Below, piece after piece: positions 3,118 to 42,228 of a stretch of DNA of 64,000 nucleotides (position 1 is its first letter; the number at the start of each line of letters is the position of its first letter). The stretch spans positions 6,611-70,610 of the forward strand of contig BTUX01000001.1 of NCBI GenBank assembly GCA_045863315.1, written 5' to 3'. The stretch is from Candidatus Hydrogenedentota bacterium (GTDB lineage Bacteria; Hydrogenedentota; Hydrogenedentia; Hydrogenedentales; SLHB01). The notes beneath the pieces were generated by a model. That model was not told where the DNA came from, ran no database searches, and was given only the letters and a program-made list of their open reading frames with translations. The position numbers and the translations under genes were made by a program.

Positions 3118-6100
3118 CTACCCAAGCTCATGCCTCCGCGAGAGGTAGTACAGAATCGGCACCGTCATGCGCGACAGCAACAGCGAAGCAACTTCACCCG
3201 CCATGAGCGAAATCGCCAACCCCTGAAATATCGGATCGAAAAGGATTACCGACGCCCCCACCACGACCGCCGCCGCCGTCAGCATCATTGGCCGAAAACG
3301 CACCGCGCCCGCATCGATCACCGCTTCGGCCAAAGGCATGCCTTGTTGCAGGCGCAACTCGACGAAGTCGACCAGGATGATTGAGTTGCGCACGACGATG
3401 CCCGCACCCGCAATAAAACCAATCATCGACGTCGCGGTGAAGAACGCCCCCATCAGCCAGTGCGCGGGCAGAATCCCTACCAGCGAAAACGGAATCGCCG
3501 CCATAATCACAAACGGCGTCTTCATTGACTGAAACCACCCCACCACCAAAATGAAAATCAGCACCAGCACGGCGGCAAAGGCCAGACCCAAATCGCGAAA
3601 CACTTCAATCGTGATGTGCCACTCCCCGTCCCACTTCACCGCAAACTTCTCGGCGGAAAACGGCTGGCCGGCCGAATACTGCTCGATACCGTAGCCCTCC
3701 GGAATCTCGAGCTTGCCCACAGCATCCATCATCGAAAGAATGACGTACACGGGGCTCTCCGCCGTCCCGCCGACGTCGCCCGTCACGTACACCACCGGCA
3801 TGAGGTTCTTGTGGTAAATGCTCTTGTCCTGAATCGTCTCTTCGATGCGAACAAGCTCGCCGAGCGACACAAGATCGCCTTGTGCGCCCTCCACTTTGAT
3901 GCTCTTCAGCCCTTCCAGATTCGACCGCTGCCCTCGCTCAAGACGCACGAAAATCGCCACATCTTCCTTCTCGTCCGGCATATGCACGAGCCCCGCGCCC
4001 ATCCCGCCCAATGCGATTCGGAGAGTCGCTGAAATCCGGTCCACCGACACGCCGTTGAGCGCGGCCTTCTCCTGGTCGATCTCGAAACGGTACTTCGTTT
4101 GATCGTCTTCGACGTACCAATCCACGTCTACCACGCCCTCGACTCGCTCGAACACATCGAGGACCTGTCGCGCAATCTCGATTTGCCGCTGGTAGTCTGA
4201 CCCGTAAATCTCCGCGACCAAGGTCTGCAACACCGGCGGGCCCGGCGGCACCTCGGCTATCTTCACGCGCGCGTTGTGGCGCTTCGCTATCGCCTGCACC
4301 TCCGGCCGCACGCGCTTGGCAATATCGTGACTTTGGGCATCGCGAGCGTCCTTCGACGCCAGGTTGACTTGGATGTCCGCTACGTTGGGTCCGCTACGCA
4401 AAAAATAGTGCCGCACAAGTCCATTGAAGTTGTGTGGGGAAGCAGCGCCAACGTACATCTGATAGTTGGCCACTTCCGGAACCTGGCGGATGTAATCGGC
4501 GATTTCGCGGGTGACCGCCGCGGTTTCCTCCAGGGTCGTTCCTTCGGGCATATCAATAACGATTTGAAATTCGCTCTTGTTGTCGAACGGCAGCATCTTC
4601 ACCAGCACACGCTGCAGCGGGACCAGCGCGCAGGCCGCGAACAATAGGAGCAGGACCAGCCCGAGAAATCCGTATCGCACGGGCGCATGAAGGAGCAACG
4701 GGCGCATTACGCGCCGGTACACTCGGTCCATCCAGTTTTCGGAATGTCCGTGTCCGCTCGTTGACGCCGGTTTGCCCTTCAGCAGCCGCACCGCCGCCCA
4801 CGGCGTGACAATGAACGACACAAACACGGAAAACACCATCGCCGCCGACGCCCCCACGGGAATCGGCTCCATGTACGGCCCCATCAGCCCCCGCACAAAC
4901 GCCATCGGCAATATCGCCGCGATCACGGTGATCGTCGCGAGCAGCGTCGGGTTGCCGACCTCGTCCACCGCCTCGACCGCCACCTCGTTCCTCGACATCG
5001 ACGCGCTTTCGGGCAGCGCGTAGTGGCGCACAATGTTCTCGACCACCACGATGGCGTCGTCGACCAGAATGCCGATCGAAAAAATCAGCGCGAACAAGGT
5101 CACGCGGTTGATCGTGTAGCCGTAGAAATAGAACACCACGAGGGTCAGCGCAAGCGTGACCGGGATCGCGATGGCGACCGTGCCGGACTCGCGAATGCCG
5201 AGCGTCAACGCGATCAAGATCGACACCGACACAACCGCAAGCAACATGTGGTACAGCAGTTCGTTCGATTTTTCCTGGGCGGTCTCGCCGTAATTTCGGG
5301 TCGCCGTGACGAGCACCCCGGACGGCACCACCTTGCCGCCAAGCTCGCGCACCTTCTCCATCACGGCGTGCGCCACTGTCGTCGCATTGGTGCCTTTGCG
5401 CTTGGCGACCGAAAGCGTCACGGCGGGTGTAGGCTCGTTGCCCGAATGCAGATTCTCGTCGGACCCCAACACGTCATGACCGCCCGGCCCTGACCCTCGG
5501 CCATAGAAGACGTAGTCCACCGGCTCCTGCGGTCCGTCCACGATATCCGCCACATCCCGCAAATACACGGGTTTTCCCTCGTGCACACCGACGACTACGC
5601 TGCCGACCGCTTCCGTATCGGCGAGAAAGCCGCCCGTCTCGACCAGAAACTCGCAGTTGTTCGAGGAAAAGCTCCCCGAAAGCACCTGTTGATTGGCTTG
5701 CGTCAGCTTCGAGACGACGCCCGCGGGCGCCACGCGGTACGCCGCCATCTTCACCGTATCGAGCACGACCTGCGCCTGTCGCCGCTGCCCGCCGATGATC
5801 TTCACCTCGGACACGTTCGGCACTTCCTTGATCGCATCGTGCAATTGCGCGGCGATCCGGCGGAGCATGTAGTGGTCGTACTGCGCGCTGGCCAGCGTCA
5901 ACGCGAGAATCGGCACGTCATCGATCGAACGCGGCTTGACCAGCGGCTCGCTGCCGCCCGGCGGGATCAAATCGAAATTCGCGAACAGCTTCTGGTTCAG
6001 ACGCACAATCGCGTCTTCTTCGTTCTCGCCCACGTAGAACCGCACAACGGTCATCGACTGGCCCGGACTCGACGTCGAGTAAATGTACTCGACGCCCGGA

Positions 6101-6354
6101 ATCTCCCAGATCAGCTTTTCCATCGGCTTCGTGATACGCTCGGCAACCTCCTTCGCGCCCGCCCCCGGCATCTGCACGAAAATGTCGATCATCGGTACGA
6201 TGATCTGCGGCTCTTCCTCGCGCGGCAACACCACCACCGCACCCAACCCCAGCAACAACGACGCGCCTATCAGCAGCGGCGTGAGTTTGGAATCGATGAA
6301 CGCGTGCGCAATGGACCCCGCCAAACCGCGTTTCTTGCCTTCCCCCAAATTCAT
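3118..6354 (-). CDS. RND efflux transporter permease subunit (AcrB/CzcA family)
   Basis: 1078 aa with 12-TM RND topology and two large periplasmic loops. Family resemblance is strong across the full length. Confidence 0.9.
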
Positions 6355-6356
6355 GG

Positions 6357-7568
6357 TCAGCCCAGCGGGGTCACCCGGCTTCCGTCGGCGATACCCGGCG
6401 GCAATTCGGCGACGTACCGCTCGCCCTCACCCAAACCCGACAACACTTCTACGCCGTCGCCCAACGACCGGCCCGTCTTGACGAGACGAAGTTTCGCCAC
6501 CCCGTTCCCGTCGACCACGTAGACCCCGGTAAGCTGCCCCCGGACCGTCACCGCGGATTTCGGCACCGACAAAGTCCGCGATTCGCCCGCGGCAAACCGC
6601 GCGCGCCCGAACATGCCCGACCACAGCCCCTCCCGGGAAGGCAAATCAATCTTGACGGTAACGGTCCGGCTCGATGGGTCCGCCGCGGGAACGACTTCCG
6701 ATACGGTCCCTTCCATCGGCAGCGAGCCCAACGCATCCACCTCCACCGACGCGGGCGAACCCACCCCGACAAGACCCGCCGACGCCACATCGACGCTCGC
6801 CTCCAGCCGGTACCCTTGGTCGTCCTCAATCGTCAGGAGCGTCATGCCCGGCGAAGCCAAATCCCCCACATCGACACTCTTGCCGGTAATCAGCCCGGTA
6901 AAGGGCGCGGTCACCCGGGTATCACTCAGCCGCACCCGCGCAGCGTCCAGTGCCGACTCCGCCTGCTCGACCCCCGCCGCAACCTGCGCGCGTTTCGCCT
7001 CGACCGCCTTCAACGTCTGCGCCGCCGCCTCCGCCGTCGCTGCGGCGGCCTTCAGTTGGGCGTCCGCCTCGTCGAAAACCTGTTTGCTGATCACGTTCTT
7101 GTCGAACAGGCTCCGCTGGCGTTCAAACGTCGCACGGGCGAGATCGCGTCGCGCATCCGCCGCGTCCCGGGCGGACGCCGCGGCCGCAATGGACCGTTCG
7201 ACCTCCTCGAGGGCCCGCCGCGCCTCGGCCACGCCGGCCTCGGCCATGCGCAAGTCCGCCGCCGCGCCGCGCTCGTCAATCTCGACGAGAACCTGCTGCG
7301 CCTCGACCCGATCGCCCGGCGCAACATGCACCGCAAGCACATGGCCCACCGCCTTGCATTGAACGGCGGCAGAAGTTTTCGACCGCACGGTCCCGACATA
7401 CTCGCGCACACCCTGCGCGGACGCCGCCTCGACCGTCGCCACGCGCGCGGTTACCGCAGGCGCCGCTTCGGCCCCGTGGGGCTTCGGCGCGTGCCCTCCG
7501 CCGCAACCCCACGCGACGAAGGCCAACACTGTCCCGCATCCGACACCGATGCGCGCAGCCATTTCCAT
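6357..7568 (-). CDS. RND efflux periplasmic adaptor subunit (HlyD-like membrane fusion protein)
   Basis: 403 aa, N-terminal signal with GCGGG, Ala-rich coiled-coil region and beta-barrel domain. Its stop lies 2 nt before the RND permease start, so the two form an operon. Confidence 0.8.
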
Positions 7569-7747
7569 TCCCCTGCTGGATCGCTCCCGCTTCCTCGCGG
7601 AAGTTCTACAAGTCTACTTGTTTGAAGTATACCAGAATCATCGATTCCGCTTGCGCCGCAAGTGCGCCCGGATGCGCCACTATGCTAGGATTTCCCGCGT
7701 ATTGGCGTGATCGATGTTCGATTCGTCCCCGCCGCAAGAAGGAGCAA

Positions 7748-9451
7748 ATGAGCATGGTCCCTCGCACGCACCTCCCTGCGCACTTCACCGCCGCCTTCCT
7801 CATCCTCGCGGCCTTCGGCTGTGGCGGCCCCACGCCGGCCCGCCAAACCGGCCCTACCGAGTCGCCGGGGCAACCGGCGCCTACGGCCGCCAACACACAA
7901 ACAACGAACGTTGAGCCGCAACCCGGTGATTGGCTGGTCGAAAACCTCGGCGCCGAACCGGCACTTCTCAATCCGATTCTCGACCTCGTCGACGCGGGCG
8001 GCCGCTACATCTGTTCTCGCATCTTCGATACCTTGATTGACTTGGACAACGAGACGCTCGAGTTTATTCCAAATATCGCCGAGAAATGGGAAATTTCGGA
8101 CGATCACCTCGTCTACACGTTCTACTTGCGAAAAGACGCCGTCTATTCGGACGGCGTACCCGTAACGGCCCACGACGTGAAGTTCACTTACGACCTCATC
8201 AAAAATCCCGCCGTCGACGCCGCCGCGGCCCGCAGCTACTTTGTCGATGTTCAGTCCGCGGAACTCGTGGACGACTACACGATCCGGTTTACATGCGTAA
8301 AGCCTTATTTCCGGCACATCCTGACGCTCGGCGCGCTTGAGCCGATTCCTCGTCACGTCTATGGGCAAGGCGATTTCAACCGCCACCCCAATAACCGGCA
8401 TCCCATCGGTTCCGGCCCCTACAAGTTCGAAAAATGGGAAACGGGGCAGCAGATTTCACTGGTCCGAAACGAGCGCTACTGGGGCCCAAAACCCATGCTA
8501 GACAGGCACGTCCTGAAAATCATCACGGACGATAACGCATCCTTCCAAGTCCTGGAACGACACGAGATCGACATCATGCAGATGCAACCCGAGATGTGGA
8601 AACGCCGCGCATCGACACCGCAGTTTGAGAGAGAGTTTGCGAAACTGACCCCACAATCGCCCATACCGGGCTATCTGAGCCGCTTCGGATACATCGGATG
8701 GAACATGCGCAAACCGCAATTCGAAGACAAGCGCGTACGCAGGGCCTTGACGATGCTGCTGGACCGGCAAACCATACTGGATCGAATCTACATGGGGCTG
8801 GGTACGCTGATTTCGGGAGATTGCTTCCCGGGCGAACCTGAATACAATCCCAACGTGAAGCCGCTTCCGTTCGCGCCGCAGGAAGCCGTGAAGTTGCTCG
8901 AACAAGCGGGTTGGATCGATGCCGACCGAGACGGCGTTCGCGAGAAAAACGGCGTACCGTTCACCTTCGAGTTGTCCTACGCCGCCGACATCCCCGAATA
9001 CGACCGCATGGCGACGGTCTATCAAGAGGAACTCACCCGCGCGGGCATCAAGATGTCTCCACGCCCGCTCGAGTGGGCCGTCTTTCAAGAGCGCGTACAG
9101 AAGCGCACGTTTGACGCGTGCATGCTCGCATGGCTGACAACCCCGCTCTATGATCCGTACCAATTGTGGCATTCCAGCCAGGCGGAGGAAGGATCCAATT
9201 ATCCCGGATTCAAGAATGCCGAGGCGGACGCAATCATGGAAAATGCCCGCGTGGAGTTTGATCGGGCCAAGCGCGTGGAAATGTACCACCGGTTCCATGA
9301 GATTCTCGACGAAGAGCAGCCCTATACGTTTCTCTTCAGCCGAAACGGCCTGATTGCGCTGGACAAGCGATTCCAAAACGTGCAGGTATATCCGCTCGGT
9401 CTGGATCCACTCGAATGGTGGGTGCCTGCCGAATTGCGCCGGTATAAATGA
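7748..9451 (+). CDS. ABC transporter substrate-binding protein, family 5 (peptide/nickel; OppA/DppA-like)
   Basis: SBP_bac_5-like sequence throughout with a signal peptide. Start at ATG 7748 (MSMVPRT...) is preceded by AGAAGGAG; the track's 7622 start is probably an upstream extension. Confidence 0.8.
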   Translation: MSMVPRTHLPAHFTAAFLILAAFGCGGPTPARQTGPTESPGQPAPTAANTQTTNVEPQPGDWLVENLGAEPALLNPILDLVDAGGRYICSRIFDTLIDLDNETLEFIPNIAEKWEISDDHLVYTFYLRKDAVYSDGVPVTAHDVKFTYDLIKNPAVDAAAARSYFVDVQSAELVDDYTIRFTCVKPYFRHILTLGALEPIPRHVYGQGDFNRHPNNRHPIGSGPYKFEKWETGQQISLVRNERYWGPKPMLDRHVLKIITDDNASFQVLERHEIDIMQMQPEMWKRRASTPQFEREFAKLTPQSPIPGYLSRFGYIGWNMRKPQFEDKRVRRALTMLLDRQTILDRIYMGLGTLISGDCFPGEPEYNPNVKPLPFAPQEAVKLLEQAGWIDADRDGVREKNGVPFTFELSYAADIPEYDRMATVYQEELTRAGIKMSPRPLEWAVFQERVQKRTFDACMLAWLTTPLYDPYQLWHSSQAEEGSNYPGFKNAEADAIMENARVEFDRAKRVEMYHRFHEILDEEQPYTFLFSRNGLIALDKRFQNVQVYPLGLDPLEWWVPAELRRYK

Positions 9452-9528
9452 CCGGGGTCCCGAAGATGAATTGTAAGGTCGCCGCGCCGCGCAACGATGC
9501 GCCGCCAGCGGGCAAATGGTGAGCGGAC

Positions 9529-10620
9529 GTGAAAGACTACCTGCTTCGCCGGTTCCTTCTGATCGTTCCCACGTTCATCGGCATCAGCCTCGTCACGTTT
9601 CTCGTCGTTCAGTTGGCGCCCGGCAATCCGGTCATGTTGCGGTTGCGCGCCGCCGGCGGCGCCATGGCGTCCGAAGGCGTTACCCAGGAAATCATTGAAC
9701 AAACGAAAAAACTCTACGGACTCGACAAACCCATTCCCGTTCGATACGCGCAATGGCTCGGCCGGCTCGCGACCCTCGATTTCGGCGATTCGTTCAAAGA
9801 CCACCGCCCGGTCCGCTCCAAAATCGCCGAGACGCTCCCCATTACACTCCAAATCAATATCCTGTCCCTGGTCTTCGTGTACCTCATTTCAATACCGGTC
9901 GGCGTGTTCTCCGCCACCCACCGCAACTCGAAACGCGACCGAATGACGAGCGTCACCCTCTTCCTCCTCTACAGCCTGCCGAGTTTCTGGGTGGCCATGC
10001 TGCTCATGTACTTCTTCGGCGGCGGCGGAGGCTCGCGATCTCTCCATTGGCTCTTCGAAAGCCTGTTTTCCACCTGCGGAATACTGGATCGGAAGGCCGT
10101 TCAGTGGCTGCTGAACAGCGTTCTACACTTCAACTGGTTTCCCGTCTTTGGCGTGAACTCCTTCGGCGCGCAGGATTGGCCCTGGCACCGGTGGCTTCTG
10201 GACCGGCTGTGGTATCTCATCCTGCCCGTCTTCTGCCTCAGCTACGCTTCCCTCGCTTCGACATCGCGCTATATGCGCGCAGGCATGATCGAGGCCATCG
10301 GCCAAGACTACGTTCGCACCGCGCGCGCGTATGGGTTTTCCGAGGGAACCGTTGTATACAAGTACGCCATGCGCAACGCACTCATTCCCATCTTGACGCT
10401 CCTTGGCGAAGAACTTCCCCTCCTGATCGGCGGCAGCGTCATCATCGAAAGCATTTTTTCCATACCGGGCATGGGCCGCCTGGCCTTTGAAGCGATCCTG
10501 TCGAGGGACTACCCGCTCATTATGGGTATCCTTTCCATTACCGCGCTTCTCACGCTGCTGGGGCTCATCCTCTCGGACGTTCTGTATGCCCTGACGGACC
10601 CGCGGATCAAATTCGACTGA
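9529..10620 (+). CDS. ABC transporter permease (DppB/OppB-like)
   Basis: 363 aa with 6 TM helices, BPD_transp_1-type permease and a GTG start. Confidence 0.85.
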   Translation: MKDYLLRRFLLIVPTFIGISLVTFLVVQLAPGNPVMLRLRAAGGAMASEGVTQEIIEQTKKLYGLDKPIPVRYAQWLGRLATLDFGDSFKDHRPVRSKIAETLPITLQINILSLVFVYLISIPVGVFSATHRNSKRDRMTSVTLFLLYSLPSFWVAMLLMYFFGGGGGSRSLHWLFESLFSTCGILDRKAVQWLLNSVLHFNWFPVFGVNSFGAQDWPWHRWLLDRLWYLILPVFCLSYASLASTSRYMRAGMIEAIGQDYVRTARAYGFSEGTVVYKYAMRNALIPILTLLGEELPLLIGGSVIIESIFSIPGMGRLAFEAILSRDYPLIMGILSITALLTLLGLILSDVLYALTDPRIKFD

Positions 10621-14054: not shown

Positions 14055-15014
14055 TCAAATGGACAGGTGCGATGATGCATCAACCCGGCGCTTGTACCAC
14101 TCGATGGTCCGTCGCAACCCTTCTTCGACCGCGACAAGGGGCACATAACCGAAAGCGCGTTTCGCCGCGGTCAGGTCCGCCAGGGACCGGGCGATATCAC
14201 CTGGCCGGGGCGGCAGAAATTTAGGTTCGATGCCGGCGCCCAGGAGGGAACTGATCAAGCCGGCCAGGTCGCGTACCGACGTGCTTTCGCCGCACGCGAT
14301 GTTATAGACGCCGGACACCGTCCCTCGTACATCGGCCGCGCGTAGGTTGGCATCCACGACATTGTCCACGAACGTAAAATCGCGCGACTGTAAGCCGTCT
14401 CCGTAAATCACCGGTTGTTCGCCCGACAACATCTTCGAAATGAATAACGGAATGACAGCCGCATACTGCGACTTGAGGTTCTGGCGCGGTCCGAATACAT
14501 TGAAGTATCGAAGGCCAACGATTTCCATCTGATAGAGGCGCGTAAGCACGCGCGCATAGTGGTCGACCGCCGCCTTTGTAATTCCGTACGGGGAGATCGG
14601 GGCCAGCGGACTGCTCTCCGGGGTCGGAATGGGCGCGGAATCCCCGTAGACCGAAGACGACGAGGCGTATACGATTCGCTTCACGCCGGCCGCGCGGCAC
14701 GCCAGAAACACGTTTAGACTACCTTCGACATTGACGCGGTTCGTCGGCCACGGATCGTCCACCGAGCGCGGCACCGAGGTGATCGCGGCAAGATGAAAGC
14801 AAACGTCGATTCCTTGAGTCAGCCGGTTGAGAAGGTGGCGGTCACAGATGCTCCCTTCGACTAGATGAATCTCATCCAGCACACCTTGCAGATTGATTAG
14901 ATTTCCCGAAGAGAAGTCATCGAGGACCAGCACATCATCCCCTCGAATGACCAGCGAATGGGTTAGATTACTGCCTATGAACCCGGCCCCGCCGGTGACA
15001 AGGTATCGTGCCAT
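14055..15014 (-). CDS. NAD-dependent epimerase/dehydratase (UDP-sugar 4-epimerase-like, extended SDR)
   Basis: TGGAGFIGS Rossmann motif, YxxxK-type catalytic region (YGITKAA), 319 aa. Confidence 0.8.
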   Translation of the reverse strand: MARYLVTGGAGFIGSNLTHSLVIRGDDVLVLDDFSSGNLINLQGVLDEIHLVEGSICDRHLLNRLTQGIDVCFHLAAITSVPRSVDDPWPTNRVNVEGSLNVFLACRAAGVKRIVYASSSSVYGDSAPIPTPESSPLAPISPYGITKAAVDHYARVLTRLYQMEIVGLRYFNVFGPRQNLKSQYAAVIPLFISKMLSGEQPVIYGDGLQSRDFTFVDNVVDANLRAADVRGTVSGVYNIACGESTSVRDLAGLISSLLGAGIEPKFLPPRPGDIARSLADLTAAKRAFGYVPLVAVEEGLRRTIEWYKRRVDASSHLSI

Positions 15015-15454
15015 GAAATATTCCCCGGCGGATTATATGGAAGGTACCGACAACAGACAATGCGCTCAGCCAGCCGAAATATAGGGAACTCGAATTTTGG
15101 AGATATTCACAACTTATCCACAGCTTCGCCCTATTTACCTGACTGCTTTCAATTATGGCTAGAAAAATCGATAAAAATTGAACGGCGACAAACTTCAACA
15201 ACATAACCTATTTACGGATAGATATTTATCCAAAATCGAATACGCTGTAAAAAAGTCCACGCCTACGGATTGCTGGCAAGGGTAGAGGTAATGATAAGCG
15301 ATCGGGTCAATAATGAAGTGAAGTTATCCACAGAGCACTGCAACTAGCCGAAAGAAACGGCACACAATATATTGGGGTCAGTGGAGTCTGGCAATCGTCT
15401 GAAAAATTAGGCATCATCCCATCTATTTGCCCGCATTGAGTCCGGACTGACGCC
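15015..15454. other. AT-rich intergenic segment with DnaA-box cluster (putative oriC part 1)
   Basis: Perfect TTATCCACA at 15114-15122 and 15324-15332. Near boxes ATATTCACA at 15103-15111 and TTATCCAAA at 15226-15234. GC is far below the window average. Confidence 0.5.
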
Positions 15455-16564
15455 CTAGATTCGGATCGGCATAATGACGTTCATATACTGGTGGGACGAC
15501 TTCCCTTCGTAGGGCTTAATGAGGCCCGGACTTGATCCGTCCTTGAGAATGAAACAGAGCTTCTCCGTCTCGATTCGTCGAATTACCTCCAAAATAAAGT
15601 CAGGATTGAACGCGACGTCGATACTTCCCCCCTCGAACTCGACCTGCATTTCCTCTTCGTACTCGCCAACCTCCGGGGTAACGACGTGTAACTTAAGAGA
15701 GGAACCGTTAACCGTAAACCGGACGGAGTTGAATTTGTCGTTGGTCATGGTGCGTGTCCGGCGCACCGCTTCAAGAAAAGCCGCTGTTTCGATGACCGCC
15801 TCTTTATCATGCTTCTTGGGAATAACCATATCGTAATTCGGAAAGTTTCCTTCGATAAGAGCCGTCACCAGCCGCACTGAACCGAACTGGAATGCCGCTT
15901 GAGTCTCATCGAGGTATACCTGTACCTCCCCTTCCTCACCCAATAGCCGTTCAAGTTCATTGATCATCTTTCCCGGAATAATCACCTTAATGTTAAGGTC
16001 CTTGGGTATACCCTCCCGTTCACTGAACAGGCTCATGCGGCGCCCGTCCGTAGCGACAGTCGTCAGCTTCCCATCAACAAGCTCACACAGCAACCCGGTC
16101 AGGTTGTAACGCGCCTGGTCTGTACAGATGGCGAAGCTCGTCTTTTGAAACATCCTCTTCAGCAACCGCTGCCCAAGTAAAATAGGTTCAATGCCTTCAC
16201 ACGACCGCACCGGCGGAAACTCCTCGGCGGACATACTGAAGAGCTTCGTGTGAATCTTCCCTGCCGCTTCAATATTGATGACATTGTTGCCTGACAAATC
16301 CAACGTAACCTCACACTCAGGCAACTCCGAAAGAATAGATGACAATCGTTGAGATGAAACGGTAAGGGAACCTTCCTCATCAACGGTACAATCAGCATTG
16401 CACTCGATACTGACCTTCAGGTCGGTAGCGGTCAGTTTCACGGTGCTGTCCTTTGCCTCCATCAGGATATGAGACAGAATCGGCAATGCGGACTTGGGTG
16501 AGACAACCGTCTTTACCTTGTTCACCGCATCGAGAAGGTCTTGACGGGAAATACGGATTTTCAT
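15455..16564 (-). CDS. dnaN: DNA polymerase III beta subunit (sliding clamp)
   Basis: 369 aa, three-domain clamp. N-terminal MKIRISRQDLLDAVNKV is typical of DnaN. GC is about 51%, lower than neighbouring genes. Confidence 0.9.
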   Translation of the reverse strand: MKIRISRQDLLDAVNKVKTVVSPKSALPILSHILMEAKDSTVKLTATDLKVSIECNADCTVDEEGSLTVSSQRLSSILSELPECEVTLDLSGNNVINIEAAGKIHTKLFSMSAEEFPPVRSCEGIEPILLGQRLLKRMFQKTSFAICTDQARYNLTGLLCELVDGKLTTVATDGRRMSLFSEREGIPKDLNIKVIIPGKMINELERLLGEEGEVQVYLDETQAAFQFGSVRLVTALIEGNFPNYDMVIPKKHDKEAVIETAAFLEAVRRTRTMTNDKFNSVRFTVNGSSLKLHVVTPEVGEYEEEMQVEFEGGSIDVAFNPDFILEVIRRIETEKLCFILKDGSSPGLIKPYEGKSSHQYMNVIMPIRI

Positions 16565-17406
16565 TCGTTAGCTCTCCACCGCCGTAAAATGAATGCAAGT
16601 TATGCTTTATTGCGTAGGTGACTTTTGTATATAAAATAAGTAGTCGTAGTAGTCCTTATCTTGAAACTGTGAATAAGTCTCTAAGTGAAGTAAAAGCGCG
16701 GAGTTCCGTGTTGGATAGGTCTTGAGTACGTTGGTGTGCTTATTCACAGTGTTGTGGAAAGGCTTTGTTTTTCTGGATTCACCGTATGAAATCTGCGTTC
16801 TCCGCTGTGGAAAACAGCCGATCTGTCCACTGCCCGCTAACAGCCAATACACCGCACTATCCCCAAATACTTAACAAGCCCTAGAAACTTTACTTATCCA
16901 CCGTTTCAATCGATACAGTTCTAACGCTCCTATTTTCTAGTATGGGATTTTCGATATTTCAATTCCGTCATGCAAACTACTACTCGGAACAATATATAAT
17001 CTCTCTAGTGAAATATATATAAGGTATTTAAATAAAAGACTTTACAAATCCATTAACTAAATCGCCTAATAATTACGAACGCCGGTCCGAAGTCGTAAAA
17101 TCAAGAAAAACAACTGTCTCTATGTGGTGCCTTATTACGACAAACACCTAGAGTTATCAACACGTTATCCACTCCTGAATCAAGTACAGCGAAGGTTCGG
17201 CGCGAAGGTCGGCGACAGGCAACTGCACCGCTATAAACCCTGTAAATCAAAGGCTATACTTGGACTTGTAATCGTATATTACCGGAACCCCGCATGTCAT
17301 GCTAACAGACGGTTCCACGTAATTGCAAGAGACCCTGACCGGATTCATCAAAAATTCATAACGTATTATTATATATATACTTATGTGTTAAGTGAAAGCC
17401 TAAGTA
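16565..17406. other. AT-rich intergenic segment with DnaA-box-like 9-mers and AT tracts (putative oriC part 2)
   Basis: 9-mers with 0-1 mismatch to TTATCCACA: 16668-16676 (reverse strand), 16740-16748, 16806-16814 (reverse strand), 16894-16902, 17154-17162, 17165-17173. AT-rich tracts near 16990-17040 and 17355-17395 are candidate unwinding elements. Confidence 0.5.
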
Positions 17407-19380
17407 TTAGGTTCGGATAACGCGCAGAAACTCTTCCGGCGCCACAATTCCTTGTTTTACCTTGTGCCGGCATTTTTCCGCCATCGTCTTGAGCTTGGCG
17501 GCCTTTGAAATCTTTTCCACCGACTCATCTTCCGAGATGAGACGGCGCAGCTCTTGGGTGATTTCCATAATTTCAAAGATACCGGTACGCCCCTTGTACC
17601 CGGTATGGTAGCAGTTGTCGCACCCCTTGCCGCGGTAGAGTTTTTTTGTGGTTTCCGGCAGATGCAATGATTTCAGTAACGGCTTGGTCGGGGTGAAGCC
17701 TTCCTTGCATTCCGGACATATCTTCCGAACCAGCCGCTGGGCCACCACGGCCGTCAGGGCCGTGGCGATAAGGTAGGAGGGCACCTGCATGTTCCGAAGG
17801 GTGGATATGGCTTCCGGGGCATCATTGGTGTGCAGCGTACTGAAGACCAAATGGCCGGTCATGGCCGCACGAATGGCGATCCGCGCCGTTTCGGAGTCCC
17901 GAATTTCGCCGACCAGCAGCACATCGATATCTTGTCTCAGGGCCGCCCGCAAGGTGTTCGCAAACGTAACATCGATGTCCGTGTCGATCTGTACTTGGTT
18001 AATCCCCGACATCTGGTATTCGACCGGGTCTTCCAGTGTCACAATGCTGTCGGTGAGAACATTTTTCTGGTTCAACGCCGCATAGAGCGTGGTGGTCTTT
18101 CCGCTGCCGGTCGGCCCGGTGACCAGTATCATGCCATACGGTTGCCCGATGACCCGCCGCATGGTGGCCTCATCTTCCGGTTCCAGACCGAGATCCTTAA
18201 TTCCCGCGAGCACCGAAGTCTGGTCTAGCAGTCGCAACACGACGCGTTCCCCGAGGTAGGTTGGGAGCGTCGCAACGCGAACGTCGAACTCTCGGTCTTT
18301 TGATTCAATCCGGATATGGCCGTCCTGCGGCCGCCGCACTTCCGTGATGTCAAGGTCTGCCATAATTTTGATGCGAGAGATCACCGCCGACTCGATGTCG
18401 GGCGAGATACTCATCACGTCGTGCAGGATGCCGTCAATCCGATATCGCACGCGCATTTCTGGTTCCTGCGGATCCATATGGATGTCCGTCGCCCCGGAAT
18501 TGATCGCGCCCTCGATTATCGTCGATACCAGCTTGATGACCGGCGCGCCCTCCGCCTCCTTCGCGATCTCGTCAAAACGTCGTTTGTCCTTGGTTTGCGC
18601 CGCCGTGCTCACGATGGTTTCCACCTCCTTGGGTTCGGGTTTCCGGGTCTTCGTCTTCTGCGGTACAGCCTTTTTTTCCTGCGCCGGTTTGGCTTCCACG
18701 TGCGCCACGTGGTCCCCGGCGGGTTCCTTCCTATGCATGGAAAGCAGACCTCCGCGCTTGACCCCTTTGTATCGCGCGCGAATTTCACTCTTGAAGTCAT
18801 CGCTGTTGGTCAACACCGGGTGAAACCGTTTACCTAGGATTACGCCGAGATTGCCCAGGTCTTCCCGCACCTGCGGCTTCGCGATCAGGCAGGTGATCCG
18901 GTCCCCTTCGATGTGCACCGGCAGCACTTGGTACTTTACCGCGAAGCTCTCCGGCACCGCGTCAAGCGCCGCCTGATCGCTCTGCGTTTCCTCCAACTCG
19001 GAAAACTCGAGCCCGTGCTGCTTCGCCAACGCGACCGAGATCGTCCGGTTCGTTACCAGTCCGCGATCGAGGAGAATCTTGCCCAGCAGCCTGCCGGTGC
19101 GTCCCTGTTCCTCCAGCGCGTCTTTAAGCTGCTCTTCGGTAATGGCATGGAGCTGGACCAGGGTTCGACCCAGCGTTTCCTGTTCGTGTTTGACGGCCCT
19201 CGGATGGTACTCGTAGCGAAGCTGGTCGAACGTGATTTTCCCCAATTGGAGCAGCGATCGGTAGAAGGGAACGCCCGATGTCTGTTCCCGCTTACGCGCG
19301 CTGTCCAACTCCTCGCGCGTGATCACGTCATCCTTGACGAGGTCGTCCCCGAGCCCTGCCCGGCGTTGCTCTTCGGCCAT
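17407..19380 (-). CDS. GspE/PilB family secretion ATPase (type II secretion / type IV pilus assembly)
   Basis: Two N-terminal GSPII_E_N-like domains, Walker A GPTGSGKTT, Asp box, Walker B, His box, and a C-terminal CxxC...CxxC zinc motif. Start set at ATG 19380 (MAEEQRR), preceded by GGAAGGGGA; an in-frame alternative lies at 19446. Confidence 0.8.
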   Translation of the reverse strand: MAEEQRRAGLGDDLVKDDVITREELDSARKREQTSGVPFYRSLLQLGKITFDQLRYEYHPRAVKHEQETLGRTLVQLHAITEEQLKDALEEQGRTGRLLGKILLDRGLVTNRTISVALAKQHGLEFSELEETQSDQAALDAVPESFAVKYQVLPVHIEGDRITCLIAKPQVREDLGNLGVILGKRFHPVLTNSDDFKSEIRARYKGVKRGGLLSMHRKEPAGDHVAHVEAKPAQEKKAVPQKTKTRKPEPKEVETIVSTAAQTKDKRRFDEIAKEAEGAPVIKLVSTIIEGAINSGATDIHMDPQEPEMRVRYRIDGILHDVMSISPDIESAVISRIKIMADLDITEVRRPQDGHIRIESKDREFDVRVATLPTYLGERVVLRLLDQTSVLAGIKDLGLEPEDEATMRRVIGQPYGMILVTGPTGSGKTTTLYAALNQKNVLTDSIVTLEDPVEYQMSGINQVQIDTDIDVTFANTLRAALRQDIDVLLVGEIRDSETARIAIRAAMTGHLVFSTLHTNDAPEAISTLRNMQVPSYLIATALTAVVAQRLVRKICPECKEGFTPTKPLLKSLHLPETTKKLYRGKGCDNCYHTGYKGRTGIFEIMEITQELRRLISEDESVEKISKAAKLKTMAEKCRHKVKQGIVAPEEFLRVIRT

Positions 19381-37569: not shown

Positions 37570-37813
37570 GGAGTTGAGCACGGGGAATCTGGGGAAGGAA
37601 TGTGATCGGGCAGCTCACTTACTTTTCCCGCGATCGAAACTAGTTTGAAATCTATGGCCAGGAAACAAAAGAGAGCGCCGCATCGTGCCGAGGTATTGGA
37701 CGGTGCTCCGATCCGTTATGCGCCGGAGAACGGGCAGTTCTGAGGGAACTCACATTCCGAATTCCCCCGTGTTTCCCGTGTCCCCGTGGTGTAATGAAAG
37801 GGAGGAGAGGAAA

Positions 37814-38779
37814 ATGAAACTGGGCTTTTTGACGGTGATGTTCAGCGATTTGCCGCTGACGAAGGTGATGGACATTATTCGTCCGATGGGGTTGCAGACG
37901 GTTGAATTGGGCACGGGCAACTATCCCGGCAATGCGCACTGCAATCTGAAGGAGATGCTGGAGTCAAAACCGAAGCGCGACGAACTCAAGGCGATGCTGA
38001 AAGGCGAAGGCCTCGAGATCAGCGCCTTGAGCTGCCACGGCAACTGCCTTCATCCGGACGAGGCCTTTGCGAAGAAGAACATTCAGGTGCAGACGGACAC
38101 GATCAAACTGGCGAACCTTTTGGGCGTGAAAGTGGTGATCGATTTCTCCGGTTGTCCGGGGTCGGACGAGAAATCAACGAAACCGAACTGGGTGACCTGT
38201 CCCTGGCCTCCGGATTACCTCGAGATTCTGGAATGGCAGTGGGCCAAGAAAGTCATTCCCTATTGGACAAAGCAGGCGAAGTTCGCCGCCGACAACGGCG
38301 TGAAGATGGCCTTCGAGGCGCACCCCGGCTTTGTGGTGTACAACCCGGAGACGCTGCTGAAACTGCGCAAGGAATGCGGCGCGAACATCGGGGCAAACTT
38401 CGACCCGAGCCACTTCTTCTGGCAGGGGATCGATCCCGTCGATGCGGTGCGCGCGCTGGGCGGAAAGGCCATATTCCACGTGCACGCGAAGGACTCGAAA
38501 GTCTACACGCAGAACGCGACTGTGAACGGAGTGCTCGACACCAAGCACTACGGCGACGAACTCAACCGGTCCTGGATCTTCCGTACGGTCGGCTATGGAC
38601 ACAGCGTCGAGTGGTGGAAGGATTTCGCCTCCACGCTGCGGATGGTCGGCTACGACGGCGCCATCTCGATCGAGCATGAAGACTCGCTCATGTCGCGCAC
38701 CGAAGGACTCAAGAAAGCGGTGGAAGTCCTCAAACAGTGCCTCATTTTCGACAAGAAGACGGCGATCACGTGGGCGTGA
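37814..38779 (+). CDS. Sugar phosphate isomerase/epimerase (xylose isomerase-like TIM barrel)
   Basis: AP_endonuc_2-like TIM barrel with its metal-binding Glu/His/Asp pattern. RBS GGAGGAGAGG. Confidence 0.75.
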   Translation: MKLGFLTVMFSDLPLTKVMDIIRPMGLQTVELGTGNYPGNAHCNLKEMLESKPKRDELKAMLKGEGLEISALSCHGNCLHPDEAFAKKNIQVQTDTIKLANLLGVKVVIDFSGCPGSDEKSTKPNWVTCPWPPDYLEILEWQWAKKVIPYWTKQAKFAADNGVKMAFEAHPGFVVYNPETLLKLRKECGANIGANFDPSHFFWQGIDPVDAVRALGGKAIFHVHAKDSKVYTQNATVNGVLDTKHYGDELNRSWIFRTVGYGHSVEWWKDFASTLRMVGYDGAISIEHEDSLMSRTEGLKKAVEVLKQCLIFDKKTAITWA

Positions 38780-38788
38780 TAATATAGT

Positions 38789-38819
38789 GTGAGGCTGGGA
38801 GGCAGGTTCCCAGCCTCAC
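38789..38819 (+). terminator. Stem-loop (11-bp stem GTGAGGCTGGG/CCCAGCCTCAC) just downstream of the isomerase gene; no U-tract
   Basis: Inverted repeat read directly from the sequence. No U-tract follows, so intrinsic-terminator activity is uncertain. Confidence 0.3.
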
Positions 38820-38840
38820 ATAGACAACCCATCTGGAGTC

Positions 38841-40016
38841 GTGGCATTGCGCTTGACCAGGCTGTGTGCAAGGAGATACCGGTCACTCTACGATATCGAT
38901 TGGCGTCTTGGCCCGCTCAATGTTTTGATTGGTCCCAATGCGGGCGGCAAATCAAATGTTCTGGATCTCTTGGAGTTGGTTCGTGATGCCGCCTGGGGTC
39001 ACCTGAAGGAATCAATTCTATCGCGCGGTGGAATTACTTCTGTGTTTTTCGACGGTGAAGGGCCAAGTTTCTCGATGAAACTTGAACATGAGGCCACGCG
39101 AGGTCTTGGCCGGCTCATCTACGACGTGGAAGTCTCCCGGGTCGCGAAATACGAAGACCCCCTCGTGCGGAGGGAGTCACTCATTCAAATTGATTCGAGC
39201 GGCGCGAAGACACCCCTAATTAGCAGAAGTTCGGGAACTGCGACGTTTTTCAATAACCGAACGAGGGCGACCGAGAAGCTCCCTATGGCCGAATCGCTGA
39301 GCGAAACGGCTCTGCACGAATTTGTGCGAATTGGAAACCCGGCGCTTCCGCAGCGAAAGTACCAGAAATGCTTGGGCCGCTTCGAGGTATTCAAACACTT
39401 TGACACCGGACCAAACGCGCCGGTTCGAAGCGCCTGCGTGACGAGCTATGATCGCTGGTTATTCGCCGACGGCAGCAATCTAACGCAATACCTGCACACG
39501 CTTACCGCGGAAAGCAAGGAGTTCCGGGCTAATCTTCGGGCCGCCATGGACGCCGCATTTGCAGGCGAGTTCGAAGAAGCAATCTTTGCCCCCGTTGCGG
39601 ACCAGAGGATTCAACTGAAGATTCGCTGGAAGCACCTCAAGAAACCCCGGTCTGCATCGGAGCTTTCGGACGGAACGATTCGGTTTCTTTACCTGATCTC
39701 AATCCTGTTGGACCCGGAACCACCCCCGCTTATCGCGATAGATGAACCGGAAACGGGACTCCACCCGCGAATGATGGCGATTATCGCGGAGCTTGCGGTG
39801 GAGGCGTCTCGCCGGACACAAGTCATTTTTGTAACCCATTCGCCCGACTTTCTCGACGCGTTCGGCCATGATGCCCCATTGTCGACGACAGTGATGGAAC
39901 TGGCCGACGGAAAAAGCCAGTTGCACATGCCCACGGAGAGTGAGCTTCGTCACTGGCTCAGCGAATACTCTCTGGGTGAAATCTTTCGATCAGGCACACT
40001 TGAAGGTTTGGTATGA
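38841..40016 (+). CDS. ABC-type ATPase of the AAA_21/AAA_15 class (RecF/SMC-like; OLD/PARIS-AriA/Septu-PtuA-like)
   Basis: Walker A GPNAGGKSN, signature-like LSDGT, Walker B LIAIDEPETGLHP, H-loop VTHSP. GC is about 50%, well below the window average. Confidence 0.75.
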   Translation: MALRLTRLCARRYRSLYDIDWRLGPLNVLIGPNAGGKSNVLDLLELVRDAAWGHLKESILSRGGITSVFFDGEGPSFSMKLEHEATRGLGRLIYDVEVSRVAKYEDPLVRRESLIQIDSSGAKTPLISRSSGTATFFNNRTRATEKLPMAESLSETALHEFVRIGNPALPQRKYQKCLGRFEVFKHFDTGPNAPVRSACVTSYDRWLFADGSNLTQYLHTLTAESKEFRANLRAAMDAAFAGEFEEAIFAPVADQRIQLKIRWKHLKKPRSASELSDGTIRFLYLISILLDPEPPPLIAIDEPETGLHPRMMAIIAELAVEASRRTQVIFVTHSPDFLDAFGHDAPLSTTVMELADGKSQLHMPTESELRHWLSEYSLGEIFRSGTLEGLV

Positions 40017-40639
40017 GGTTTGTCCTCATCGCGGAAGGGGAAACCGAACGACGTGCCCTTCCCGGGTTCCTCGGCCGTTGGCTTAACCCCAAACTCACCA
40101 GACCTGTCGGGATACGCGTTGACAACATGCGAAGTTCAGCCACATTGCTTCGCGAGATCGTTCGGAGGTCAAAGACACATCTTTCATCACCGGTCGCGGC
40201 AAACGACCTCGCTGGCGTGATCGGTCTGGTGGATTTTCGGGATGTCCCATTTCCGCCGAAATGCAAATCCGTCCTTTCCCGATACGCTTGGATTACCGAG
40301 AAGGTTCAAAGGGAGGTCGCCCATCCCAGGTTTCGTATGCACTGCGCAGTGCACGAATTGGAAGCTTGGATTCTAAGTCAACCAGGAATACTTCCGACCG
40401 CCGTTGCCCATGCGCTTCCAAAAAGGGCGTCGAACCCCGAAGAACTAAACTTTGATAGGCCTCCTTCACGAATTCTCCAGCGATTGTACTGGGAAAAGCG
40501 GCGCCATCGTTTCATGAAGACGATTGACGGTGTTAACTTGATTCAAAAACTCGATCCTGACGTTGCATATGGCAAATGCCCTTTTCTCCAGCGCTTGTTG
40601 GATGACATGCTATATCTTGCAAGAAGGAAGGGCCAATGA
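40013..40639 (+). CDS. DUF4276-like small protein (N-terminal IAEGETE then GLVDFRD: possible Toprim-like E...DxxD)
   Basis: 208 aa with an ATGA overlap onto the ATPase gene. The N-terminal acidic motif and an HELEAW segment fit DUF4276-type partners of AAA_21 ATPases. Confidence 0.55.
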   Translation: MRFVLIAEGETERRALPGFLGRWLNPKLTRPVGIRVDNMRSSATLLREIVRRSKTHLSSPVAANDLAGVIGLVDFRDVPFPPKCKSVLSRYAWITEKVQREVAHPRFRMHCAVHELEAWILSQPGILPTAVAHALPKRASNPEELNFDRPPSRILQRLYWEKRRHRFMKTIDGVNLIQKLDPDVAYGKCPFLQRLLDDMLYLARRKGQ

Positions 40640-42228
40640 ATGCCTTCCCGTTTCGCGCCTCTTCGTTTGTCTTGATTATCCACGCATTAACGTTCCACGT
40701 TGGCGAATTCACCGCATTCGCGCAGGAGCATGAGCCCGGCAACCGCGGCATGATCATGCGGCGCGACACACGGCCCCCCGAGCCGCCGCCACCGCCGCCG
40801 GAGCCTGAACACAAGCGCGACGCCGAACCTCCTCCGCCGCCGAGGCGCGGACTCGCTGACGCGCCGCCGGACTCGTCCGCATGGGCGGTGGGTCTCAACG
40901 AGTATTTCGAGACCCACCTGGCGAATCCCACCCCCGACGAGGTGCTGGGCGCGCTTGTCACGCGGATGAACCGCGCGACACTGGCGGGAACGGCGCCGGG
41001 AAGAGAGTTCGTCGCGTTCTCGGAATGGCTCAAGACCTTTCGACGCTCGCTGCCGAAGAACGAATCCGAAACGAAATCGGTCGAAGGTCTTTACCGAAAC
41101 GTGTCGGACTGGGTCGCGCTTGAATCGGAATACCACGACGGCGGGGACCGATCGGTGTTGAAACGCCTCGTCAGAGTCGTCCAGTCGCAGGCGGAACTCG
41201 ATCCCGGGCTTGATCCGGAGCGCCGGCAGCGCATCATCAACACGATTGAGAAGGACGGACTGTTTGTTCCCGCGGGCATACTTTTCGGTTACTCGGTGCT
41301 GCCCTACCGCAACGTGAAGGTCCCGGCGGGATACGTACCGCTCGAGGTCCCCGTTCAGCCCCGATTCGTAGACGTCGAGCGCAGGGCCATGGCGAACTAT
41401 GACTTTCTCGAAGCGCCTGGGCCGATTTTCCGGGTCGATTTCGACACGCTGCACTCCGTCGCGGTCCGCGTCGAACAGAGCGCGGACGGACAGAACTACT
41501 CGGTGGTCCAGGAGTGGACTTCGCAGCACCCCGGCGGGGTGCGGGGGCCGGTCATCCTCCAGCGGCCATTCCGTGCGCGCTACGCGCGCGTGACCTGCGA
41601 ATCGCAACGCGAAACGGCCATATTGCGCAATCCGCGCATATTCGCGTTGAAGGAACCGGCCGCCGCAATCTGTCCGTCGTCGAATGCCGTTCCCGTGCTC
41701 GATGCGTCGTTCAAGGAAAAGCCGTGGCCGTTAAAGGCGCAGATTGACGGCTTCGTCAACGTGGACCAGAAGGCGTTCGCGGAATCGCAGACCACGGTCC
41801 GTATCGTACGTACCAGCGGCGCTCTCTACATCGGCGCGTACTGTCGAGAAGCACGCATGGACACGATGGCCGCCGGGATGGACGCGCACGACGCACCGCT
41901 GTGGGACGAAGAGTCGTTCGAGGTGCGAATCCGCCCCGAGGGCGGGCCTGTGCACCGATTCATCGTTAATCCGCGCGGAGCGCGGTTCGAGAGCCGCGAC
42001 GGTGAAGATTCGTGGGACGGCGAGTGGAGCGCCGTGTGCAAGTCGTACCCGCTCGGCTGGGCCGCGGAAATTGAGATTCCCTTCGCCACGCTCGGCGCAA
42101 GACCGTCCACATCGGATTGGAGGATGGACTGCGCGCGGGTCCGCCACAATGTGGCCCGAGAACACTCGGTTTGGGCCTACGGCGCCGACGGCCCCGAATC
42201 GAACGGCGGACTGCTGATTTTCGAGTAG
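40636..42228 (+). CDS. Hypothetical secreted protein with Pro-rich region and CBM9/DOMON-like C-terminal domain
   Basis: Hydrophobic N-terminus, PPEPPPPPPEPE stretch and a beta-rich C-terminal half. ATGA overlap with the upstream gene, but native high GC. Confidence 0.4.
   Translation: MNAFPFRASSFVLIIHALTFHVGEFTAFAQEHEPGNRGMIMRRDTRPPEPPPPPPEPEHKRDAEPPPPPRRGLADAPPDSSAWAVGLNEYFETHLANPTPDEVLGALVTRMNRATLAGTAPGREFVAFSEWLKTFRRSLPKNESETKSVEGLYRNVSDWVALESEYHDGGDRSVLKRLVRVVQSQAELDPGLDPERRQRIINTIEKDGLFVPAGILFGYSVLPYRNVKVPAGYVPLEVPVQPRFVDVERRAMANYDFLEAPGPIFRVDFDTLHSVAVRVEQSADGQNYSVVQEWTSQHPGGVRGPVILQRPFRARYARVTCESQRETAILRNPRIFALKEPAAAICPSSNAVPVLDASFKEKPWPLKAQIDGFVNVDQKAFAESQTTVRIVRTSGALYIGAYCREARMDTMAAGMDAHDAPLWDEESFEVRIRPEGGPVHRFIVNPRGARFESRDGEDSWDGEWSAVCKSYPLGWAAEIEIPFATLGARPSTSDWRMDCARVRHNVAREHSVWAYGADGPESNGGLLIFE

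Follow-up and report, generated by a model that had tools for sequence, protein, structure and literature searches.

HEC-01 (Hma-embedded candidate 01) is a two-gene system pairing an ABC ATPase with a TOPRIM protein that was found within Hma (helicase-methylase-ATPase) systems (Payne et al., bioRxiv 10.1101/2024.01.29.577857). It is related to Mad3-Mad4 of the MADS system, to AbiL, and to PARIS. In PARIS, AriA keeps AriB sequestered until it senses a phage protein, and the AriB then set free cleaves tRNA; the PARIS structure paper also groups AbiL and MADS3-4 with the ABC-ATPase + TOPRIM systems (PMC11464382). Mad4 of MADS is a homologue of DUF4276, a family that has been classed in the Toprim superfamily (PMC12065111), and deletion of mad3 or mad4 weakens MADS defense (bioRxiv 10.1101/2023.03.30.534895). 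Here we describe a pair of adjacent genes in a 64,000-nucleotide (nt) stretch of a Candidatus Hydrogenedentota bacterium (contig BTUX01000001.1, assembly GCA_045863315.1, positions 6,611 to 70,610; the whole stretch is hereafter the window). The pair very probably belongs to the HEC-01 family, a candidate anti-phage system catalogued in PADLOC, and it was inserted between two native genes. Its components are as follows (lengths in amino acids, aa).

38841 to 40016, plus strand: ABC-type ATPase (HEC-01A-like; AAA_21), 391 aa from a GTG codon; the probable TTG start at 38847 gives 389 aa.
40013 to 40639, plus strand: DUF4276 protein (HEC-01B-like), a putative metal-dependent nuclease with a predicted Toprim fold, 208 aa.
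40002 to 40016, plus strand: probable translational-coupling junction, with a GAAGG Shine-Dalgarno-like element in the last ATPase codons followed by the ATGA stop/start overlap.

Both proteins matched the Pfam families expected of them, AAA_21/AAA_15 and DUF4276, and the PADLOC models place them together in one system, HEC-01, in line with the original prediction of a candidate defense module that had been left unnamed. The ATPase matches AAA_21 over the full profile (6.5e-34) as well as AAA_15. Its best match in PADLOC-DB is the HEC-01A model PDLC04175 (E 1.1e-62, 210 bits, residues 4-389, profile positions 5-360 of 363). Another four HEC-01A models match at E < 1e-40, so that the five range from 1.1e-62 to 7.6e-41 and extend over near full length, well ahead of the matches to AriA, mad3, AbiLi, GajA, and Old. 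Every ATP-binding and hydrolysis motif is retained (Walker A GPNAGGKSN at residue 31, signature LSDGT at 275, Walker B/D-loop IDEPETGLHP at 300, and H-loop VTHSP at 331), and all of the motifs originally quoted for the two proteins are present at the spacing that was given for them. The predicted structure, with a pLDDT (predicted local distance difference test) score of 92.1, resembles Smc/Rad50 heads and the defense ATPases of retron Ec83, PtuA, and AriA. Judged by its motifs and this model, the protein is predicted to be a catalytically intact SMC/Rad50-type ABC ATPase. It is a long-branch member of its family, with a mean identity to other members of 42% compared with 52% among the others.

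The DUF4276 protein (VLIAEGETE at residue 4, GLVDFRD at residue 71) matches only DUF4276 in Pfam (6e-22, profile positions 1-191 of 192) and only HEC-01B models in PADLOC-DB (PDLC04188, E 6.3e-10, residues 2-200, profile positions 14-224 of 230). A structural model built with an alignment of 21 homologues (pLDDT 93.2, predicted TM-score 0.89) shows an alpha/beta core of four strands, after which the C-terminal half is helical. Its fold matches the Toprim regions of OLD, GajA, and AriB, consistent with the Toprim/OLD resemblance that had been proposed from the acidic motifs. Foldseek searches of the model against the PDB returned only two convincing matches, 6NJV (E 9.3e-4) and 6NK8 (E 2.8e-3, TM-score ~0.5), and both matches fall in the C-terminal (Toprim + helical) part of a class 2 OLD nuclease. 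The DUF4276 profile had no meaningful match among PDB chain sequences; the protein is linked to OLD through comparison of predicted and solved folds only.

A Toprim fold has four parallel strands in a sheet, with a conserved Glu following strand 1 and a DxD motif following strand 3. An exhaustive profile search recovered 1,473 clusters at 50% identity (E <= 1e-3), and conservation was counted over 135 diverse full-length members. Near-invariant residues are E8, G9, T11, E12, D74, H114, E115, E117, A118, W119, P142, E143, K169, and C189, giving a family signature of E-G-x-T-E / D / H-E-x-E-A-W. Conservation exceeds 97% for E8 (with E12) after strand 1 and for D74, the first Asp. The acidic E...DxxD core that was first proposed for this protein is thus upheld at E8, E12, and D74, whereas D77 is Gly in 103 of the 135 members, the Asp is peculiar to this sequence, and the family motif around D74 reads G-L-L-D-L-Y-G. 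The subfamily keeps the Toprim Glu and first Asp, without the canonical DxD, and has an invariant HExEAW after strand 4. The spatial arrangement of these conserved residues in the putative active site is inferred. The window protein deviates at 2 of 28 conserved columns, compared with a family median of 1.

The two open reading frames (ORFs) that had been predicted, of 391 and 208 aa and joined by an ATGA overlap, were confirmed; they are adjacent on the same strand and share 4 nt at positions 40013-40016. The junction at 40002 to 40016 reads cttGAAGGtttggtATGA. We compared nine further homologous loci with the window locus, and in all nine an NTGA overlap follows GAGG or GGAGG. The overlap and GAGG-like element are kept in 10 of 10 loci, which is good evidence at the sequence level that the pair is translationally coupled, and such coupling would imply, we infer, a stoichiometric complex of the ATPase with the DUF4276 protein. 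The ATPase more probably starts at TTG 38847 (389 aa) than at GTG 38841, because the TTG codon lines up with the start Met in 49 ATPase homologues, lies 9 nt downstream of a GGAG, and is the gene start called on an independent metagenome assembly with the same locus. Several metagenomes (SRR17284924, DRR491769, SRR17284922, and SRR8556133) contain copies that are nearly identical.

The window pair resembles HEC-01 in having the same two-gene order (ABC ATPase, then TOPRIM/DUF4276), in matching the HEC-01A and HEC-01B hidden Markov models (HMMs) over near full length, and in the agreement of the predicted folds. It differs in standing alone between housekeeping genes, outside an Hma or other defense system, and in being divergent, in an uncultured phylum, with nearest homologues that are 47-51% identical. 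Embedding in Hma is the context in which HEC-01 was discovered and is probably not a requirement for its detection. The likeness to Mad3-Mad4 of Pseudomonas aeruginosa MADS consists of an AAA_15/21 ABC ATPase with a DUF4276 partner in both. The window ATPase matches PADLOC mad3 (3.7e-24) and NCBIfam MAD3 (NF047739, 7.6e-28). However, its NF047739 score of 97.8 bits against a cut-off of 420 shows that it is not an equivalog, no mad1, mad2, or mad5-8 (methylase, kinase, and others) lies near the pair, including the mandatory MAD6, MAD7, and MAD8, and in PADLOC the small protein matches HEC-01B models only.

The parallel with PARIS, Septu, and OLD/Gabija that had been drawn at the outset is a fair analogy, and the pair is a member of none of these. 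Unlike PARIS, its predicted effector is a DUF4276 protein of 208 aa, not the DUF4435 protein AriB of about 300 aa; no AriB HMM matched, and the AriA match of the ATPase is far weaker than its HEC-01A matches. The NCBIfam PtuA score (14.4 bits against a cut-off of 500) separates the ATPase from that of Septu, and its partner has a predicted Toprim fold with no match to an HNH (PtuB) family. As regards OLD and Gabija, the ATPases are related, with Old, GajA, and ATPase-Toprim HMM matches of ~1e-13 (partial for GajA and Old), and the best superposition of the DUF4276 model is with class 2 OLD, over its entire C-terminal region comprising the Toprim core and helices (6NK8, 6NJV). However, ATPase and Toprim are fused in one polypeptide in OLD and GajA and are separate genes here, class 2 OLD and Gabija have a UvrD-type helicase whereas no helicase is found among the window neighbors, and the window family has a single Asp and a HExE motif in place of the canonical DxD. 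AbiL of Lactococcus is likewise a two-gene abortive-infection system of an AAA_21-type ATPase and a Toprim-superfamily partner, and the AbiLi HMM matches the window ATPase at 5.3e-20. The AbiLi partner, AbiLii, is RloB-like and not a DUF4276 protein, and the window small protein matched no AbiLii model. Membership in PARIS, Septu, Gabija, MADS, and AbiL was rejected on these partner-protein or score criteria.

Three features flank the pair.

37811 to 38779, plus strand: xylose-isomerase-like TIM-barrel gene (Pfam AP_endonuc_2, 2.2e-36), the native left flank, outside the module.
38788 to 38820, no strand assigned: hairpin with a 13-bp perfect stem at the left edge of the insertion, most likely a terminator or stabilizer of the TIM-barrel gene and not part of the module.
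40636 to 42228, plus strand: 530-aa predicted secreted protein of unassigned family, the native right flank, outside the module; GC content at third codon positions (GC3) 0.77.

The pair is a horizontally acquired cassette of ~1.86 kb inserted between two native genes. Orthologues of the TIM-barrel gene in Candidatus Hydrogenedentota metagenome-assembled genomes (MAGs) are 88-89% identical. In the closest relative, locus L012 (JAWXCN010000173), collinearity with the window (49-88% identity) extends over the genes for a GGDEF protein, AroA, a Gfo/Idh/MocA oxidoreductase, the TIM barrel, and the 530-aa protein. Only ~70 nt with a terminator hairpin separate the TIM-barrel stop codon from the 530-aa gene there, and neither an ATPase nor a DUF4276 gene is present. 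A second relative, L013, has the same arrangement without the pair; in these two closest relatives the otherwise collinear genes share 70-88% aa identity, and nucleotide homology to the relatives stops at the TIM-barrel stop codon. Because the site is empty in the closest relatives and codon usage is atypical, the pair was acquired and is not a conserved core function, as the original prediction had proposed and as the comparison of related genomes that it called for now shows. The right-hand boundary of the insertion falls between 40636 and ~40735, where nucleotide sequences cannot be aligned because the 530-aa gene has diverged too far in its signal-peptide region. A search around the insertion for target-site duplications and terminal inverted repeats gave short, chance-level repeats only, and no recombinase gene flanks it.

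The 530-aa gene overlaps the DUF4276 stop codon by ATGA at 40636-40639, has a GC3 of 0.77 that is typical of the genome, and was correctly set aside at first as unrelated to the pair. It is native, since it directly follows the TIM-barrel gene in genomes without the pair. Its orthologues in L012 and L013 (49-55% identity) came from tblastn searches of loci that had been retrieved with the TIM-barrel gene; a peptide-pattern scan of genome contigs found no relatives of this protein. The protein is predicted to be secreted, has a proline-rich linker, and has no match in Pfam, PADLOC, or NCBIfam. Since its start overlaps the DUF4276 stop after the insertion, the gene may have come to rely on the cassette for expression.

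The stem-loop noted upstream of the pair does exist (-31.6 kcal/mol, z = -4.5), and none of 200 shuffled sequences folds as well. No T-tract follows it on the plus strand, whereas the hairpins in the corresponding place beyond the TIM-barrel stop codon of L012 and L013 have T-tracts and are unrelated to it. A role as a regulatory element of the module was rejected, as the empty-site relatives have hairpins there too. Because pair-less relatives carry a terminator hairpin at the same position, it is more likely the terminator of the TIM-barrel gene than a component of the module.

The composition of the pair deviates in the direction first described (GC content of about 50% against about 65-68% for flanking genes), although the contrast is smaller than those values: the pair has 54.0% GC (ATPase 54.8%, DUF4276 52.3%), the window as a whole averages 61.3%, and values for the flanking genes run from 57.4% (TIM barrel) to 63.9-65.9%. 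The contrast is mainly at third codon positions. GC3 is 0.61 in the ATPase gene and 0.53 in the DUF4276 gene, compared with a mean of 0.771 (standard deviation 0.046) for the 36 other window ORFs of at least 200 aa (z = -3.6 and -5.3, respectively). Elsewhere, too, the pair is lower in GC than the rest of its locus, by 3 to 14 percentage points and whatever the GC of the host, in 10 of 10 loci (the window, L005, L007, L008, L010, L011, L015, L092, L093, and L094). This uniformity suggests repeated recent transfer or an intrinsic compositional bias of the family.

The position downstream of the TIM-barrel gene is a synteny breakpoint across Hydrogenedentota. In L015, a Hydrogenedentota MAG (JACQVH010000077, 11095-12992), an ATPase-DUF4276 pair directly follows an orthologous TIM-barrel gene (80% identical). 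This pair is 40% identical to the window pair and ranks 103rd of 122 and 24th of 24 among the homologues collected. Since it is among the most distant homologues of the window pair, it most likely represents an independent acquisition at the same site, as judged by sequence divergence, and would make the site a local hotspot. In L027 (CAZPMT010000001, 10995-11800), the position after the TIM-barrel gene holds two small overlapping genes that, judged by eye, appear to encode a RelE/HigB-type toxin and an XRE-family helix-turn-helix antitoxin.

Outside the same organism, the nearest homologues are 47% (ATPase) and 51% (DUF4276) identical. Homologues occur in Acidobacteriota, Planctomycetota, Bacillota, Armatimonadota, and other phyla, with named sources including Bryobacteraceae, Planctomycetota (including Blastopirellula marina), Thermoanaerobaculia, Sedimentisphaerales, Syntrophomonadaceae, and Armatimonas. 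The ATPase gene precedes the DUF4276 gene in all loci examined, and in seven of the nine homologous loci the pair stands alone. In L008 (6774-12991), it lies between an RND membrane-fusion gene and a pump gene with gaps of ~10 nt. The pair of L094 (464-7008) lies just upstream of an RND membrane-fusion gene, and this shared association with RND efflux may reflect coincidence or related organisms. The L093 pair is within a pentose-phosphate cluster, adjoining MazE/PemK. One of the closest DUF4276 homologues (47% identity), in L092, lies between a ResIII helicase gene and an N6/N4 methyltransferase gene that it overlaps, and this kind of helicase and methylase cluster is the context through which HEC-01 was discovered. 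In the same locus (5123-9849), the 218-aa gene immediately upstream of the pair matches the N-terminal part only of type III methyltransferase models and the 741-aa gene immediately downstream matches the rest; the pair there may interrupt a methyltransferase gene or lie between fragments of one. In L011, the second gene is no longer recognizable as DUF4276.

We favor, with some reservation, the reading that the window pair is a stand-alone HEC-01 defense module in which an ATPase sensor controls a metal-dependent nuclease effector. By analogy with PARIS, OLD/Gabija, and retron-Septu, the ATPase would oligomerize in an ATP-dependent manner, bind the nuclease, and restrain it in an inactive state. 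On sensing a phage cue, it would free or activate the nuclease, whose metal-dependent cleavage of nucleic acid, either tRNA or DNA, would then halt replication of the phage, perhaps at the cell's expense. The defense context of relatives counts in favor of such a role, with L092 in a ResIII-helicase/DNA-methyltransferase cluster and L093 beside MazE/PemK. Several observations weigh on the other side. The sensor, release, and cleavage steps are purely analogical. Published tests of HEC-01 are mixed: the representative tested by its discoverers gave no protection in E. coli against any phage tried (bioRxiv 10.1101/2024.01.29.577857), and a later study reports protection of E. coli B, against one or more of T4, T5, and T7, by a cluster of cold-seep metagenome origin (bioRxiv 10.1101/2024.09.26.614923). 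The canonical Toprim DxD is lacking from the DUF4276 subfamily, with Tyr or Gly in place of the second Asp in the consensus, so nuclease activity is not guaranteed. The ATPase is an unusually divergent member that departs from the consensus at 16 of 117 well-conserved columns compared with a median of 3, mostly by conservative changes. None of the 10 neighboring window genes has a PADLOC match, which puts the pair outside a defense island; most homologous loci are in housekeeping contexts; and no sigma-70-like promoter was found upstream of the pair.

Some of the same observations would suit a selfish addiction (toxin-antitoxin-like) cassette, with the Toprim nuclease as toxin, the ATPase as its neutralizer, and no dedicated anti-phage role. 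A pair whose loss is harmful would spread and persist, and this one is small, coupled, and stand-alone, with relatives inserted in housekeeping contexts and even within operons (RND in L008; pentose-phosphate, next to MazE/PemK, in L093). The RelE/HigB-like toxin and XRE antitoxin identified by eye in L027 occupy the same post-TIM-barrel site in a third lineage, and the first HEC-01 tested showed no defense. Further, the methylase gene mad5 can be deleted only along with mad2 or mad3 (bioRxiv 10.1101/2023.03.30.534895), which points to an ATPase-dependent toxic activity in MADS. However, one HEC-01 representative did protect, Mad3 and Mad4 contribute to defense, and addiction and abortive-infection defense are not mutually exclusive. 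Classical addiction modules are typically enriched on plasmids and phages, whereas no carrier of the DUF4276 subfamily was found in IMG/VR viral contigs (two peptide patterns, of limited sensitivity), PLSDB plasmids, or INPHARED phages. We regard an addiction cassette as rather unlikely. Similarly doubtful is the view of the pair as an accessory module left orphaned from a restriction-modification-like system (of the Hma, MADS, or type III-like kind), non-functional or decaying without helicase and methylase partners. The discovery of HEC-01 embedded in Hma systems, the L092 homologue between a ResIII helicase and an N6/N4 methyltransferase, and the operation of Mad3 and Mad4 within an eight-gene MADS system agree with that view, as do the lack of a helicase or methylase among the window neighbors, the long branch of the ATPase, and the loss of a recognizable DUF4276 gene in L011. 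Decay is harder to reconcile with two intact ORFs, a putative nuclease that retains all of its catalytic and near-invariant residues (deviating at 2 of 28 conserved columns; family median, 1), and an ATPase with all of its motifs, and the seven of nine homologous pairs that stand alone suggest autonomous function.

A housekeeping pair for DNA repair or maintenance, comparable to RecF and RecR, is highly improbable. RecF is an ABC ATPase and RecR a Toprim protein, so the composition of the pair parallels theirs, and the ATPase has a weak N-terminal match to the TIGR00611 RecF model. That match scores 21 bits against an NCBIfam cut-off of 172, however, and the small protein resembles OLD-type nuclease regions and has no match to RecR. 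The empty site in the closest relatives and the patchy distribution across phyla at 40-50% identity largely exclude a RecF/RecR-like role, and the codon usage is atypical as well. A more speculative proposal, to which we give very little weight, concerns how such pairs move: HEC-01-type pairs might be self-mobilizing, with their own Toprim nuclease and SMC-like ATPase promoting seamless insertion into intergenic sites immediately 3' of terminator hairpins. Such mobility would account for the independent arrival of two unrelated pairs (40% identity) at one post-TIM-barrel site in two Hydrogenedentota lineages, the occurrence of pairs inside operons where a stop/start overlap links them to the next host gene, and the absence of an accompanying integrase, transposase, or flanking repeats.

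As a candidate defense module, the pair is an expected kind of cargo gene and a fairly ordinary find, HEC-01 being already known. It extends HEC-01, a catalogued and only weakly validated candidate defense family, into the uncultured phylum Hydrogenedentota. What is new here is the family address, the empty-site proof of acquisition, the recurrent insertion site, and the residue-level signature. The occupied and empty sites in close relatives, together with a second, unrelated pair at the same site in another lineage, constitute a natural experiment, and the DUF4276 signature over 135 members supplies concrete residues for mutagenesis in a family without a sequence-detectable solved structure. 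If a PARIS-like sequester-and-release model holds, the pair would be among the smallest ABC-ATPase + Toprim immune modules.

The pair is not the lowest-GC stretch of the window, which lies at 15000-17450 (~45% over 1.8 kb). This region was considered as another island and rejected, as it contains dnaN with clusters of DnaA-box-like sites. The dnaN gene (15455 to 16564, minus strand, three DNA_pol3_beta domains) has AT-rich non-coding DNA on both sides, and these flanks hold 9 of the 14 DnaA-box-like sites in the window (TTATCCACA, at most one mismatch; 4.85 expected). A dnaA gene is not adjacent to dnaN. The stretch is probably a chromosomal replication origin (oriC) split around dnaN.

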